A stretch of 64,000 bases of DNA, taken from Sedimentisphaerales bacterium. Lineage in GTDB: Bacteria > Planctomycetota > Phycisphaerae > Sedimentisphaerales > SM23-30. The stretch spans positions 20,870-84,869 of the forward strand of contig JAFGKT010000060.1 in NCBI GenBank assembly GCA_016928435.1. Reading direction: 5' to 3'. The notes beneath the pieces are model-generated. The model was not told the DNA's origin. It saw only the letters and a program-made list of their open reading frames with translations, and did no database searches. Shown piece after piece: positions 14,693-23,677 of this stretch (the stretch's first letter is position 1; every line of letters begins with the position of its first letter). The position numbers and the translations under genes were made by a program.

Positions 14693-15601
14693 TTATGCTG
14701 TCAACAACGTCAAAACCAACTGCATCCCGTTAAAAAGCGCATGGCCGATAATTGGAATAAAAATATTGCGGTACTTCTCGTAAGCATACCCCAAACACAT
14801 CGCCAACACAAAAAGCGCCGGCCAATGCTGCCAGTTTCCCGCGTCGTGCAGCATCACGAAAAAAACCGAAGCCCCAATAATCCCCAACCACCGTTGCCGC
14901 GGACTCGCACTCCTCAACTCACCCGGCAACTTTTCAGGCACCGCCTCACCAGGTAACAAATTCTCAAAGACCGACCGCGGTCTGCAAAACAGCCCAACTA
15001 AAAAGCTCTGCACCATACCCCGAAAAAAAAGCTCTTCCTCGATAGGCGTAAACACCGCCGCCATCACCACCATCAAAACCCTCAGCAACGCGTCGGGCTT
15101 CTCCGCCAGCGTTTTGAGTACTTCGTGCTGCTGATCTGTGTCATACCCGCATAGTGAACATGCCGTCATGGTGATAAACAGAGTCAAAAGCGTTAATCCC
15201 GTACCAACGAAAAAAATCACTCCCCCTCGTCGCACAGTATCAAGCCATTTTCCTCTAACCAACCCGAACCCGCTCAGTCCATCATCAAAAAACCGCTTGG
15301 CTGCCAGCAAGATAAAGCCGATCGTCAAAACCTGCGTCAATATATAAAGGCCGTAAAACCCCGAAGTGCCCGCCTCAATCCCAGCCTTCAACGGCACCAC
15401 TTTGAGAATCACCCAAACTATGAATATAATCCCCAATTCTTTAAGCCCCAAGCGGTGAGGCCGTTGCGGCGCATCCTCCAACGCCGCAGCAAAACCCCCG
15501 CTGCGTTTGAGCCAATACACAAATGCGATAACAGCCCCCGCATACCAAACGCAGTAAATAATCGTGGAAATAGTGCTATCCAATTCATTTCCCCAATTCA
15601 C
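14693..15601 (-). CDS. CPBP (CAAX/Abi) family intramembrane glutamic endopeptidase
   Basis: Polytopic. 'EELFFRG' and 'HALFN' motifs. Start overlaps the proC stop by 17 nt. Confidence 0.8.
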   Translation of the reverse strand: MNWGNELDSTISTIIYCVWYAGAVIAFVYWLKRSGGFAAALEDAPQRPHRLGLKELGIIFIVWVILKVVPLKAGIEAGTSGFYGLYILTQVLTIGFILLAAKRFFDDGLSGFGLVRGKWLDTVRRGGVIFFVGTGLTLLTLFITMTACSLCGYDTDQQHEVLKTLAEKPDALLRVLMVVMAAVFTPIEEELFFRGMVQSFLVGLFCRPRSVFENLLPGEAVPEKLPGELRSASPRQRWLGIIGASVFFVMLHDAGNWQHWPALFVLAMCLGYAYEKYRNIFIPIIGHALFNGMQLVLTLLTA

Positions 15602-16382
15602 GACTGCGCTGCGTAGCCCGAAGTACCGTATTCTCGATTATCTCCGCGACCGGCGAATTCTCCAGCACTTCCCGACCCGCCACCGTCGTACCGTTAGGTG
15701 AAGAAACCATCTGAATCAACTCTTCACAATCCATCTTCCACTCACTCAGCAATTCGGCTGTACCCGCGAAAGTTTTCAGCGTCAGTTCCCGCGCCACGCC
15801 CGGCTCTAGCCCCGCCCGCACTCCGCCGTTGATGAACGCCTCGATAATCCGCGCCACAAACGCGGGCCCCGATCCGCTTAGCCCCGTCACCGCGTCCAGC
15901 AAATCCTCCTCCACCTGCACCGCCGTCCCCGCGCATGCCAACATCGCGCGTACCCGCGCAAGCTGCTCATCGCTCACATCGGCACCAACAGCGAACCCTG
16001 CCGCCATTTGTCCCACCAGGCACGCCGTATTCGGCATAACCCGAACAACCGGCTCAGCCAACACCTCTCGTATCTTCTCGATCCGAACCCCCGCCATGAT
16101 CGAAACCACCACCTGATCCGCCTGCGCCTCCGAAACGCACCCCGAGATCGCGTCCGGAAAGTTCTGCGGCTTGAATGCCAAAACCACCATCTCAGCCGTC
16201 TGAAAAACCTCAGCGTTATCACCCGTCGTAACCACCCCCAATTCCCGCTCAACTTTCTCAAGTTGCTCGCCCGACACGTCGCTGCATATTATATCTTTTG
16301 CTCCAATCAACCCGCTCCGTATCATTGCCCCCATGAGCGCTTGCGCCATTTTTCCAGCGCCAATAAAACCGACCTTGTTCAT
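15585..16382 (-). CDS. proC: pyrroline-5-carboxylate reductase
   Basis: 'VGFIGAGKMAQAL' Rossmann motif and 'SSPNGTT' C-terminal signature; 265 aa. Confidence 0.9.
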   Translation of the reverse strand: MNKVGFIGAGKMAQALMGAMIRSGLIGAKDIICSDVSGEQLEKVERELGVVTTGDNAEVFQTAEMVVLAFKPQNFPDAISGCVSEAQADQVVVSIMAGVRIEKIREVLAEPVVRVMPNTACLVGQMAAGFAVGADVSDEQLARVRAMLACAGTAVQVEEDLLDAVTGLSGSGPAFVARIIEAFINGGVRAGLEPGVARELTLKTFAGTAELLSEWKMDCEELIQMVSSPNGTTVAGREVLENSPVAEIIENTVLRATQRSRELGK

Positions 16383-16595
16383 TTTTGGTAACTCCTGGGC
16401 TCTATAGTACCTTCCACTAAACCCCCCAATATTGCCTATTTTTAACTGAAAAAAAAGTGAGAATTAGCCGTCGCCTGAGCATCCATATAATACATTGTTT
16501 TTACGTACTTTAAGAACCTTTTTATCCGTTTTTCACCCCAAAATGCAATATTGCCCCAAAAAAAACGAACTTCCCACCATATGCCTGCGTATAAT

Positions 16596-16679
16596 CTAAC
16601 AGTAAGAGAATACAAAAACAACAACCAAACAACCAACTGAAAACACACACAAGGCACCAAAGACAGCAAACAACAGCAT
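16596..16679 (-). CDS. 27-codon hydrophobic small ORF (MLLFAVFGALCVFSVGCLVVVFVFSYC)
   Basis: ATG at 16679 preceded by 'AAAGGAGGAGGAGAACGAAA' (strong SD, 7-nt spacing). TAG at 16596-16598. Not in the ORF track (too short). The coding call is speculative. Confidence 0.3.
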   Translation of the reverse strand: MLLFAVFGALCVFSVGCLVVVFVFSYC

Positions 16680-16756
16680 TTTCGTTCTCCTCCTCCTTTG
16701 CTCCGAGCGGAAGGGCCCTTATGAGTAACATCTTGTAAGGGCCCTCCGCTTTTGTT
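16602..16756 (+). ncRNA. candidate ~155-nt sRNA, antisense to the small ORF
   Basis: Perfect TATAAT at 16590-16595 on the plus strand. CA-rich unstructured body. Ends in a ~16-bp hairpin (16705-16751) followed by TTGTT. There is no plus-strand gene upstream that could need this terminator. Confidence 0.3.
16705..16756 (+). terminator. intrinsic-terminator-like hairpin 75 nt upstream of rtcB
   Basis: 'GAGCGGaAGGGCCCTTA-14 nt-TAAGGGCCCTCCGCTT' then 'TTGTT'. A T-tract is present only on the plus strand. Confidence 0.5.
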
Positions 16757-16829
16757 ACATTAGGACCTGGCGTAGAACGTTCCCTCATCTGCTGACAAAA
16801 CCAACACGCTCGGCCGTGGGGTAACCCCA

Positions 16830-18263
16830 ATGCAGCTCAAACGCTTGGACAAATATCGCTGTCTCATCGAGCCAGACCCCGCCATGCGCGTCCCTGCCTG
16901 CGTATATGTTTCCGACCGCCTCAAAGTCGAACCCGACGCCTTAAGGCAACTCCGCGACGCCGCCTGCCTCGAGCCTGCCCGTCAAGTCCTAGCCACCCCC
17001 GATATTCACGTAGGTTTCGGCGTACCAATCGGCGCCGTCGTCGCCCTCCAGGACGCTATTATGCCCGCCGCCGTCGGATACGACATTAACTGCGGCATGC
17101 GACTGCTCACCACACCCCTCAAACGCAAAGATTGCGACGTTGATCGCCTTGCCCATAGCATTGCTCGTGATATTCCCTTGGGCGAAGGAAAATCCAATCT
17201 CACCTTGACCGGCGACGACCTCGACGCCGTTCTCACCAACGGCCTGGATGCCTTACCTGCCCTCGCCGAACACAACGCCCATCGAGCTTGGCAAGCCTAT
17301 GATCCTCAGCAGTGGACCATCGACCGCAAAGCCGTTGAACGCAACGGCGCGTTGCCCGGCGAAGCATCCTCTGTGCCCTTCAAGGCCCGCGAAAAAGGCG
17401 GCGCCCAACTTGGAACCCTCGGCGGTGGAAACCATTTCATCGAAATTCAAATTGTCGATAAAGTACTCGACGAACCCTTGGCTCGAACTTTCGGCCTAGA
17501 GATTGGCAACATCACCGTCATGATCCATTCCGGCTCACGTCGCCTTGGTTACGAAGTAGCTGATGAATACATGCGTCTCGCTGCCGATACCCGAGATGCC
17601 CAAGGACCAGCCCGACAATTGGCCTACCTAAACAAAAACGAAAAAGGGTTCGCCCGCTATGTCGGCGCCATGAACGCCGCCGGTAACTTCGCTTATGTCA
17701 ATCGTCACATAATGATGCTGCTCGTCCGCCGCTGTTTCCGCCACGAATTCCCCCATCTCGAAATGCCCCTCATCTATGATGTCTCGCACAACATGGCCCA
17801 ATTCGAACAGCACAGCCAAGGCAGTTTCTGGGTCCATCGCAAAGGCGCCACCCGCGCGTTCGGCCCCAAACGCATGGCTGGAACCCCTTTCGCCGCGATC
17901 GGCCAACCCGTCATCATTCCCGGCTCTATGGGCACCGGCAGCTATCTGCTCATCGGCGACGATGGTTCCGAAGAAGCCCTCGCGTCCGTCAACCACGGGG
18001 CAGGACGAACCATGAGCCGCAGCGCCGCCGTCGGCAAACGCAATCGACGTACCGGCAAAGTAATCCGACCCGCCGCCATTACCGACGACGAATTCAAACG
18101 CTCAATGAAAGACGTCACCCTAATCGCCGCCGACAAATTCGCCGTCAAGGAAGAAGCCCCCGCAGCCTACAAAGACATAGACCAAGTCATTGATGTCGTC
18201 GCCGGCGCAGGCCTAGCCCGACCAGTAGTACGCCTCAAACCCCTGGCAGTCCTAAAAGGATGA
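16830..18263 (+). CDS. rtcB: RNA 3'-phosphate ligase RtcB
   Basis: 'GYDINCGMR', 'GGGNHFIE', 'HSGSRRLG', 'VSHNMA', 'PGSMG' and 'VNHGAGR' are RtcB active-site landmarks. Confidence 0.92.
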   Translation: MQLKRLDKYRCLIEPDPAMRVPACVYVSDRLKVEPDALRQLRDAACLEPARQVLATPDIHVGFGVPIGAVVALQDAIMPAAVGYDINCGMRLLTTPLKRKDCDVDRLAHSIARDIPLGEGKSNLTLTGDDLDAVLTNGLDALPALAEHNAHRAWQAYDPQQWTIDRKAVERNGALPGEASSVPFKAREKGGAQLGTLGGGNHFIEIQIVDKVLDEPLARTFGLEIGNITVMIHSGSRRLGYEVADEYMRLAADTRDAQGPARQLAYLNKNEKGFARYVGAMNAAGNFAYVNRHIMMLLVRRCFRHEFPHLEMPLIYDVSHNMAQFEQHSQGSFWVHRKGATRAFGPKRMAGTPFAAIGQPVIIPGSMGTGSYLLIGDDGSEEALASVNHGAGRTMSRSAAVGKRNRRTGKVIRPAAITDDEFKRSMKDVTLIAADKFAVKEEAPAAYKDIDQVIDVVAGAGLARPVVRLKPLAVLKG

Positions 18264-21950: not shown

Positions 21951-22177
21951 TGTGGCTTTGCCTGCACTTTTGGCTGCTTAGCTGGGAGAACCCTAAAAAA
22001 AGTATTGACTGAATCGATATAGTTCGTCATAATCGGCGTTAATGCGAGAAAATCACAGCCTCTTAATAATAGATATAGAAAGCTGCCAAGCGACTGAGGT
22101 ATCGCCCGAATTACTGGGCTCGGGCTTTGCTTTAACGATACAATTCAACTAATCTGTAAACTGCGGAGAACTATTCG

Positions 22178-23677
22178 ATGTTGAAAATGCGCCTCATCTC
22201 ATTGCTGTTAGTAGGTATTTTCGTCAGTGGTTGTTTAGGGCAAGACAGCGGGGGCATAGAGGGTGTGACTGTGTTGTCAGCTCAACCGCTGGGCGGCGTT
22301 ATTACAAGCCCGGCAGATAATCTGGTGGATGGCGATGCCGCTACCAACTTCGAGTGGACCTTTTTTAACGGTGGTGTGGAGATCGTGTTGGACTTGGGCC
22401 GGGCTTGCCGGGTGGACCGAGTGGTTATTACCAACGGCTCGGGCGAGAACCGCTGCATCTGGGCTAATGAAATATGGGTTGGTAACGGCGGGGATCTGGA
22501 TAGGGAGTTTCTGCATCGATCTATTAATCTGGCTACGGTGCCGGGGGGACGCACGGAAATATCGATCGGCCCGGCAGTGGGCCGGTACATAAAGTTAAAG
22601 TTCTTAGGCACCGGTCTTGCCGAAATAGAAGTTATAGGCCGTGAAAATGTTCCCGAAAGGCATCTGTGCGGCTGGGCGACGCGTATGCAGGCAGACTATT
22701 TGGATAAGATCGACTATCTTAGCGATGAGCTGGGCGTAACGGATATCTGGCTGGACTATGTTGAGACAGCTTGGCCGCAGACGAATTTTAATACCGGCTT
22801 GGATTGTTGGGAGGACGCCGGCGCATTTGAAGAATTTGCCCAGCGGGGAATCCGATACTGGCTCGGCGAACATGAGTTTTTCACCTGCTTGGTAAACAGT
22901 CCTCAAGTGCTGGAGGACGACCAGGTGTGGGAGCGATGCCTCATACAAGCCCGACAGGTATATACTAGAGCGCGGGATCTGGGCTTCACCGGCTTGGCTT
23001 GGGATGCTGAAACCTACTCCAATCGGATGGCGTGGCGATATGAGCAGCATTGGGGCCCGGATGGACTCTACTACCAACGAGGCCTGCAGTACGGACGCGT
23101 CATAAAGGAAATCTGGGACTGTGAGATAATCCAACTGTGGGAGGGGCGAGTGTTCGGCAATTTCCCATTGCTGCCCGGTATCCGGTTTGTACCGGAAATC
23201 GAGCAGGAAGATTACTTGCAAGGCAATTATTGGTTTCTCAAAGGCATTCATGATGCCGGCCTTCGAGTTTCCCTGGCCATGGAAATCACTTATGGCGCCG
23301 GCAATAGCGAAATGCCCCCCAGCATAGAAGGCCTAAACCAGCTGAACCGCTGGTTTGAACACATGCCCGACTTCTATGTCGATCTGGCATACAAAGCTTA
23401 TCCTTTCTTGCATCGTGTCCTGCCCGGTTTCCATCCTTGGAATTGCCGAACCCAAAGGGCCAATTATCTCCCGCAGTATTTAGACGAGCAATTGACTATT
23501 GCTCAACAAATTACCGATGCCTATTGGATCTACACCGAAGGTACACCTCAGGCCGGCGACCCGCGCGATACGCTCGACGCTGAAATACTATCTGAGTATG
23601 ATGTGACAGCTCAGGACTACATAGATGTCTTTGAGCAGCACCCAACCCCGCGTTCAATCGAACAAGGCCAAAGATAA
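22178..23677 (+). CDS. lipoprotein with N-terminal F5/8 type C (discoidin)-like domain and an uncharacterised ~330-aa C-terminal domain (paralogue A)
   Basis: Lipobox 'FVSGC'. 'NLVDGDAATNFEW' is a discoidin-like start. Long identical runs with ORF 34174..35700, e.g. 'DYLDKIDYLSDELGVTDIWLDYVETAWPQTN' and 'GIRYWLGEHEFFTCLV'. Confidence 0.7.
   Translation: MLKMRLISLLLVGIFVSGCLGQDSGGIEGVTVLSAQPLGGVITSPADNLVDGDAATNFEWTFFNGGVEIVLDLGRACRVDRVVITNGSGENRCIWANEIWVGNGGDLDREFLHRSINLATVPGGRTEISIGPAVGRYIKLKFLGTGLAEIEVIGRENVPERHLCGWATRMQADYLDKIDYLSDELGVTDIWLDYVETAWPQTNFNTGLDCWEDAGAFEEFAQRGIRYWLGEHEFFTCLVNSPQVLEDDQVWERCLIQARQVYTRARDLGFTGLAWDAETYSNRMAWRYEQHWGPDGLYYQRGLQYGRVIKEIWDCEIIQLWEGRVFGNFPLLPGIRFVPEIEQEDYLQGNYWFLKGIHDAGLRVSLAMEITYGAGNSEMPPSIEGLNQLNRWFEHMPDFYVDLAYKAYPFLHRVLPGFHPWNCRTQRANYLPQYLDEQLTIAQQITDAYWIYTEGTPQAGDPRDTLDAEILSEYDVTAQDYIDVFEQHPTPRSIEQGQR

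Follow-up and report, generated by a model that had tools for sequence, protein, structure and literature searches.

A probable ribosome-binding-site-masking small RNA gene upstream of rtcB in an uncultured Sedimentisphaerales bacterium and its relation to a multi-copy RNA family

In a 64,000-nt stretch of the genome of an uncultured Sedimentisphaerales bacterium (the window; the assembly is a metagenome-assembled genome (MAG) of 80 contigs and 3.07 Mb, 85% complete), a 449-bp spacer separates two divergent genes, one proC-like (minus strand, start 16382) and the other rtcB (plus strand, start 16830). This spacer holds a compact unit, at 16567–16756 of the plus strand, that consists of a promoter, a CU-rich box and an intrinsic terminator. 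The reading that fits it best, and that we hold with moderate confidence, is a gene for a stress-type, trans-acting small RNA (sRNA) that would mask ribosome-binding sites and would be a diverged paralogue of a multi-copy RNA family. An earlier note on this DNA, made from its letters, had put forward a type I toxin–antitoxin pair of the Ibs/Sib type, in which a hydrophobic minus-strand frame is overlapped by an antisense RNA, and had named an sRNA or an attenuating leader of rtcB as alternatives. It is the sRNA alternative that gained from the comparisons reported here, because the promoter-to-terminator unit of the plus strand is conserved and appears to be a distant member of a multi-copy RNA family.

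All the features that the earlier note had described are present in the sequence where it had placed them. A perfect TATAAT on the plus strand (16590–16595) abuts the stop of a minus-strand open reading frame (ORF; 16679 to 16596) of 27 codons, the product of which is MLLFAVFGALCVFSVGCLVVVFVFSYC and the start of which is preceded by a strong Shine–Dalgarno (SD) sequence (AAAGGAGGAGGAG, 7 nt, then ATG). The plus strand is A/C-rich at about 16602–16676, and a hairpin at about 16705–16751 is followed by TTTTGTT at 16750–16756; a terminator scan flags the same hairpin, with 14 pairs, 7 of them G–C. No plus-strand gene lies upstream, the spacer being divergent and the proC-like gene lying on the minus strand. 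The corresponding 165-nt plus-strand RNA folds with z = −4.2 and beats all 200 shuffles, the hairpin supplying nearly all of the energy; both the 5′ part and the CU box are unpaired in the predicted folds. Placed from the −10 element, the start of the RNA would lie at about 16602.

A DNA match for the spacer was found neither in its own genome nor in 40 relatives, and homologous loci were reached through rtcB synteny. RtcB orthologues of 64–66% identity are encoded in four genomes of the window's family (f1), and the closer RtcB relatives (P0002–P0016) are 64–80% identical. The layout of the unit is found again upstream of rtcB, in DNA that is otherwise dissimilar, in G022 and G016 (genus g17) and in G010 (genus g11); the rtcB-linked unit thus spans three f1 genera (g1, g17 and g11), 74–100 nt upstream of rtcB and in the same orientation. 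The G016 element is split between two contigs that overlap by 55 nt. G022 and G016 also have the divergent proC neighbour; in G010 a gene other than proC lies upstream, on the same strand. The common layout reads GAAC-N16-CGTATA(AT), 26–31 nt of A-rich sequence, CATTTT(N1–4)CTCC(TCC)TTT, a stable hairpin and a T-run. A strict pattern (GAACN{16,17}CGTATAN{18,48}CATTTTYNTYYYCY, the last part being CAUUUUYNUYYYCY as RNA) has 5 matches in 400 genomes of the order and none in the reversed control; the window's own element falls outside this pattern, with 83 nt between CGTATA and CAT. Two of the matches lie beyond the rtcB loci, in G091 and G133 (family f7, genus g46), where rtcB is on other contigs and the unit (L254:1443-1580(-) and L255:1434-1580(-)) is convergent with the 3′ end of dnaA, the two having a bidirectional terminator in common.

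Comparison of the six GAAC-type members separates what is kept from what varies. CAUUUU(N1–4)CUCC is present in all six, and the conserved form of the box, CAUUUU(N1–4)CUCCUCC(U)UUU, is the complement of an SD sequence plus AUG. The 5′ part is 26–31 nt long and A-rich in G010, G016, G022, G091 and G133 (A/G/U-rich in the g46 copies), and only its unpaired, A-rich nature is conserved. The hairpins of the homologues stand in the same place and are unrelated in sequence, with the U-run directly after the hairpin in four of five and on a second hairpin in G010. A MAFFT alignment of the six members was structurally inconsistent and no model was built from these. Because promoter, box and terminator recur in other genera, they are, as judged by this comparison, more than chance. 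The element is absent upstream of rtcB in G017, in about 25 loci of family f7 (in which 77 of 167 genomes have an rtcB orthologue) and at 160 loci from metagenomes or genomes whose RtcB is 51–60% identical. Many of the f7 genomes have, 100–200 nt upstream of rtcB and beside a divergent gene, a recurrent (T)TGTCAAG(C/T) word (L032–L055), which may be a common promoter or operator.

CA-richness of the 5′ part was considered as a conserved signal in its own right, either a Rho utilization (rut) site or a CA-motif sponge, and was rejected: the homologues are A-rich, not CA-rich. The genome contains 55 AC-rich 60-nt segments comparable to that of the unit, and C strongly outweighs G on the plus strand of this region, irrespective of gene orientation. 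Between 10000 and 24000 of the window the GC skew of the plus strand is strongly negative (−0.15 to −0.42), again independently of gene orientation, and its sign flips near 22000–23200.

The promoter of the unit resembles those of extracytoplasmic function (ECF) sigma factors, for which AAC at −35 and CGT at −10 are typical (PMC5758882): it has both elements, fused to the perfect TATAAT. GAAC-N16/17-CGTATA precedes all five homologous elements, and the window has GAAC-N17-CGTATAAT; with AAC and CGT at a spacing of about 16–17 nt these promoters fall in the ECF class, the sigma dependence being predicted from the motif only. The −35 words that are enriched upstream of TATAAT hexamers in the same genome are CTTGAC, TTGACT and TTGACA; since the housekeeping −35 words are TTGAC-like, GAAC is not a housekeeping −35. 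The genome encodes 14 proteins with a sigma70_r4_2 domain, and GAAC-N16/17-CGTA lies just upstream of 2 of the 14 genes versus about 0.13 expected. One is an ECF sigma gene on contig C70 (about 66600, minus strand), preceded by CGAACTT-N15-CGTAAAAT, as compared with CGAACTT-N15-CGTATAAT in the window; the second ECF sigma gene is at C37:3785(+). Because its own promoter so closely resembles that of the window unit, the C70 sigma factor is a suggestive candidate for the regulator. A second AACGAAC-N17-CGTATAAT promoter, at C66:28367(+) (L219:69-400), has about 300 nt of A/C-rich leader between it and a gene for an ABC-2-type permease, and may belong to the same regulon as the window unit.

Scanning the same genome for the box, then a hairpin, then a T-run gave three further copies, two of them in tandem (C72:14732-14807(-) and C72:15000-15070(-)) and one at C49:67993-68067(-) (L275 and L274). 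These copies, which we call canonical, start with a sigma70-type promoter (TTGACT-N17-TATATT for both C72 copies) and a variable 5′ stretch of about 25 nt; the box comes next, followed by a GA-repeat hairpin with its U-run. The box is CAUUUUCCUCCUCCUUU(U)GGG, given also as CAUUUUCCUCCUCCUUUUGGG. The canonical RNA also occurs in G022 and G016. A covariance model built from five copies (R1, alignment A3) scores the three copies of this genome at 76–89 bits and finds 1–3 copies at 62–94 bits in 14 of 24 other f1 genomes; weaker matches of 29.8–32.6 bits (E of 1e-4 to 6e-4) in three more f1 genomes make 17 of 24 at E ≤ 1e-3. There was no match at E ≤ 1e-4 in 16 genomes of other families, and none in Rfam 15 for the canonical copies. 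Among 22 aligned copies, the box shows no variation over its first 14 nt (CAUUUUCCUCCUCC), and three copies have single-base variants in the UUU(U)GGG that comes next. Of the stem cells, 96.9% are paired, and three pairs have both of their bases changed; a U-run follows the hairpin in every copy, the loop and the 5′ part being variable. Most copies have TTGnnn-N17-TAnnnT 18–30 nt upstream on the same strand. Their neighbours are unrelated to one another: a formylglycine-generating-enzyme-like protein, a rhamnosidase, an amidohydrolase and an enzyme of glycoside hydrolase family 10 (GH10). At C14:7721-7787(-) (L279:1501-1567), R1 gives a weak match of 22.6 bits that comprises CAUUCCUCCUCCUUUCG, a hairpin and U7. 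It could be another diverged member, or else a gene on the opposite strand could have its ribosome-binding site there, next to a bidirectional terminator.

By eye, a 5-nt insertion turns the canonical box into that of the window, CAUUUUC[GUUCU]CCUCCUCCUUUG, and the window has the hallmark of the family, CAUUUUC..CUCCUCCUUUG in single-stranded form directly 5′ of a terminator. The canonical GA-repeat stem (CGAGAGAGAGAG / CUUUCUCUCG) and a sigma70 promoter 18–30 nt upstream of the box were not found there; the window stem, GCGGAAGGGCCC..., is unrelated, and its 5′ part has another length than that of the canonical copies. R1 scores the orthologous units at 25.4 bits in G022 and 29 bits in G016 (genome-wide E = 7.7e-4), and Rfam gave the window element no match at E ≤ 10 apart from noise. 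On this borderline evidence, the window element would belong to a diverged GAAC-type subfamily and not to the canonical set, and convergence on the same box instead of common descent may also account for the likeness.

Table 1 Features of the unit and its neighbours in the window, and minus-strand frames of three homologues
Feature	Position	Strand	Remarks
Promoter	16567..16595	+	GAAC (16567-16570), 17-nt spacer, CGTATAAT (16588-16595)
Predicted RNA 5′ part	16602..16676	+	A/C-rich, unpaired; fold prediction
CU box CAUUUUCGUUCUCCUCCUCCUUUGCUCC	16677..16704	+	Complement of a strong Shine–Dalgarno sequence, spacer and AUG
Intrinsic terminator	16705..16756	+	Imperfect hairpin of ~20 bp, then UUUUGUU
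27-codon open frame antisense to the RNA	16596..16679	-	Judged a non-gene
rtcB (RNA 3′-phosphate/5′-OH ligase)	16830..18263	+	PF01139; downstream neighbour
proC-like (pyrroline-5-carboxylate reductase)	15585..16382	-	Divergent neighbour, outside the unit; function read from the translation
G022 minus-strand frame		-	MFFLVSSC
G016 minus-strand frame		-	MFFLVSSC; one synonymous difference from G022
G010 minus-strand frame		-	MLFVLFSTT

Under the sRNA reading, the ECF-sigma-like promoter GAAC/CGTATAAT would drive an RNA of about 150 nt that carries, in this order, a long unpaired A/C-rich 5′ part, the single-stranded CU box CAUUUUCGUUCUCCUCCUCCUUUGCUCC and the intrinsic terminator. The sequence CCUCCUUU is the core of the anti-SD tail of bacterial 16S rRNA. 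It is contained in the box, together with a CAU at a spacing that mirrors the 6–9 nt from SD to AUG in all six GAAC-type members. Because the box thus joins the sequence of the anti-SD tail to a CAU at ribosome-binding-site spacing, the RNA is predicted to pair over ribosome-binding sites; the duplex would run from the SD sequence to the AUG of target mRNAs and would block translation initiation. The promoter type suggests induction by stress, which, by analogy with known ECF-dependent sRNAs, could be envelope stress or another kind. Targets were searched for by duplex energy and exact complementarity at ORF starts, the energies being dominated by G–U-rich artefacts. One site, GAGCAAAGGAGAGGAGAAC at C5:97452(+) (L221), lies before a 196-aa ORF that has no Pfam match. 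This site is complementary to the window box except for a gap of 1 nt, and counts as a target lead without statistical significance.

Several results weigh against this reading. The plus-strand RNA, with its ends and its strand, is a prediction. R1 aligns over its full length to 16675–16758 of the window at a borderline 19.1 bits (E = 0.0055 in 80 kb, 0.2 genome-wide; sixth in the genome), and the unit departs from the canonical copies both in its type of promoter and in the 83 nt that separate CGTATA from the box. GAAC-N16/17-CGTATA is not enriched genome-wide, with 6 sites versus about 12 expected. The target search gave no convincing trans target, and at none of the ORF starts did exact complementarity reach 13 nt; the 16S rRNA 3′ end was not recoverable from this MAG, and Hfq was not found in it, at 85% completeness. 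On the minus strand, the one substitution between the mini-frames of G022 and G016 is synonymous. The SD-to-AUG spacing of 6–9 nt would fit selection for a translation start on the minus strand too, as would the g46 copies, in which the C of CAU is the sole C in about 40 nt.

Two alternatives place a translated frame on the minus strand. The 27-aa hydrophobic peptide could be a membrane toxin and the plus-strand RNA its antitoxin, as the earlier note had proposed, a reading to which we assign very little probability. The locus has a strong SD sequence, an ATG, an entirely hydrophobic frame and, at the level of sequence, an antisense unit, complementary to the whole frame plus its SD and equipped with a promoter and a terminator, that overlaps the frame completely; the frame of the G091 homologue has 26 aa, with a hydrophobic head and a charged tail, and type I toxins are poorly conserved in sequence. 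The properties of the frame, however, follow from its composition. The frame body (T45 G21 C9 A3) contains so little A that 70% of its mononucleotide shuffles lack an in-frame stop. Over this stretch none of the three minus-strand frames is closed by a stop codon, and the hydrophobic content of 88% compares with 83% expected from random translations of the same composition. Openness and hydrophobicity are by-products of composition: the box, read on the opposite strand, is an SD plus ATG, and with a T/G-rich, nearly A-free stretch after it such a frame is unavoidable. The toxin-like properties of the frame add no information beyond the SD plus ATG. Nor is a toxin frame of membrane-helix length (about 18 aa or more) kept across the homologous loci, where the antisense frames have 8, 8, 9, 26 and 29 codons and neither sequence nor frame is maintained; those of G022, G016 and G010 are too short to span a membrane. 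Within genus g46, the frames of G091 and G133 (MTFLFTFFTFIYAAALMRFGKFRENH and MISFILSLSSYTPPPQNGSIYSWKIPKIF) have a common start and then differ in frame. Such variation shows no constraint at the protein level, whereas promoter, box and terminator, all on the plus strand, are constrained. In the 22 canonical paralogues, the frames that mirror the same SD plus ATG range from 1 to 49 codons with no pattern. The 27-aa peptide has no Pfam or NCBIfam match even at E ≤ 10, and a consensus scan, the only method applied, found no minus-strand promoter-like site at 16680–16830. The toxin–antitoxin reading is accordingly not supported. Alternatively, the minus-strand SD plus AUG could be the real start of a mini-ORF whose peptide is of no consequence, for example a ribosome-loading or regulatory one upstream of proC, which the plus-strand RNA would control in cis. 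In its favour, the SD-to-AUG distance stays within its narrow range despite a variable spacer on the RNA strand, CAU is kept without exception, the C-poor g46 copies included, and on the minus strand of G000, G022 and G016 the downstream gene is proC. Yet that strand has nothing downstream in G010 and g46; the window has no minus-strand promoter-like site, and the possible one seen by eye in the A/T-rich spacer of G022 (TTGAGA-N16-GATAAT) is not conserved; pairing of the RNA with the AUG of a target explains the invariant CAU equally well; and in the canonical copies the conserved promoters and U-runs are on the RNA strand only. We therefore regard this arrangement as improbable.

The remaining alternatives concern rtcB. 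The unit could be the 5′ leader or attenuator of this gene, with transcription starting at GAAC/CGTATAAT, mostly stopping at the hairpin and reading through under some conditions, and with the CU box as a cis-regulatory or protein-binding element. Adjacency in the same orientation in three genera makes the attenuating leader that the earlier note had considered possible, and between the terminator and rtcB the window has only a weak sigma70-like promoter, which lies within the terminator (TTGTAA (16733–16738)-N17-TACATT (16756–16761); 8 of 12 positions, by eye, below the threshold of the scan). We nevertheless consider a leader unlikely. The g46 units adjoin dnaA, with rtcB on another contig, and the unit is therefore not tied to rtcB; the canonical paralogues stand by themselves, with unrelated genes on either side, and the element is missing from the rtcB orthologues of family f7 and of G017. 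No alternative anti-terminator fold was found, the 5′ part being unpaired, and near the start of rtcB in G022 there is no G-rich partner for the box. G010, moreover, has a good promoter, TTGCAT-N16-CATAAT, between the unit and rtcB. This promoter ends 8 nt before the rtcB ATG (L019:800-860), and because of that position the rtcB mRNA of G010 is probably leaderless or nearly so. Read-through that co-induces rtcB may nonetheless occur, and a more far-reaching proposal builds on it and on E. coli, in which RtcB re-joins the anti-SD-bearing 3′ end of 16S rRNA after cleavage by MazF (PMC5416887). The CU-box RNAs, in which the anti-SD sequence in its exact form is joined to a complement of AUG, could be a new class of abundant mimics of the 16S tail that globally damp or re-programme initiation in these Planctomycetota; the ECF-driven copy and rtcB would then form a stress module, in which the RNA holds SD-led mRNAs, or replaces the missing tail, while RtcB repairs ribosomes. 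We give this idea little credence.

Among known systems, the closest to the sRNA that we favour are the cuckoo/αr14 RNAs of Alphaproteobacteria (among them CcsR1–4, NfeR1 and SmelC397), whose anti-SD motif CCUCCUCCC is thought to occlude ribosome-binding sites, a mechanism that has been proposed and partly shown (PMC4615179, PMC10746234). They, too, are stress-linked, trans-acting and present in several copies per genome, with a CU-rich anti-SD motif as the only conserved part and stems that vary freely (PMC4615179, PMC10746234), and the g17 orthologues of the window unit carry CCUCCUCCC in the terminator loop. The cuckoo motif, however, sits in the loops of two to four adjacent hairpins, in each of them, whereas the window has one hairpin and a linear, single-stranded box that is extended by UUUUAC... 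to the complement of AUG and stands before the single terminator hairpin. Homology of sequence or structure, an Rfam match and Hfq were not found, and the host belongs to the Planctomycetota; the window RNA would work like the cuckoo RNAs, as an analogue and not a member. With the sigmaE-dependent or other ECF-dependent sRNAs MicA, RybB and MicL it has in common an alternative-sigma-type promoter, an unpaired seed (5′ or central), an intrinsic terminator and the proposed repression of targets (PMC4102768). It differs in that its sigma dependence is predicted from the AAC/CGT-type promoter alone and its seed is a generic anti-SD sequence, not a gene-specific one; neither Hfq nor homology links the two. 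The likeness to Ibs/Sib lies in a short hydrophobic frame with a strong SD, the whole of which is covered by an antisense unit that has a promoter and a terminator of its own; the window frame differs in being unconserved and often 1–9 codons long in relatives, in having no detected promoter on the toxin strand and in matching no toxin family. Motifs of the RsaE/RoxS type are short (CCC/UCCC) and lie in loops. The C-rich-seed sRNAs of Firmicutes, such as RsaE/RoxS and the loops of RNAIII, resemble the window RNA in their unpaired pyrimidine-rich motifs that pair with the G-rich SD of several mRNAs (PMC9266662), and differ in that the window box is linear, 20 nt long and reaches from the SD through the start codon; there is no homology.

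Together, these comparisons describe a previously undescribed RNA family, multi-copy and family-wide in uncultured Sedimentisphaerales, as defined by sequence and covariance, with a diverged subfamily under ECF-type promoters that holds the window unit. The canonical family is marked by an anti-ribosome-binding-site box of 20 nt that hardly varies. Outside Proteobacteria and Firmicutes very few regulatory RNAs are known, and one survey lists 8 sRNA families for the whole Planctomycetes–Verrucomicrobia–Chlamydiae (PVC) group versus 345 for Proteobacteria (PMC9029176). For annotation, the locus teaches that a hydrophobic frame behind a strong SD plus ATG is not necessarily a toxin gene and may instead mirror an anti-SD RNA. 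If the proposed function is true, the anti-SD sRNA strategy of Alphaproteobacteria would have been invented independently here, and the family would provide an entry point to translational control, a subject unexplored in this phylum.

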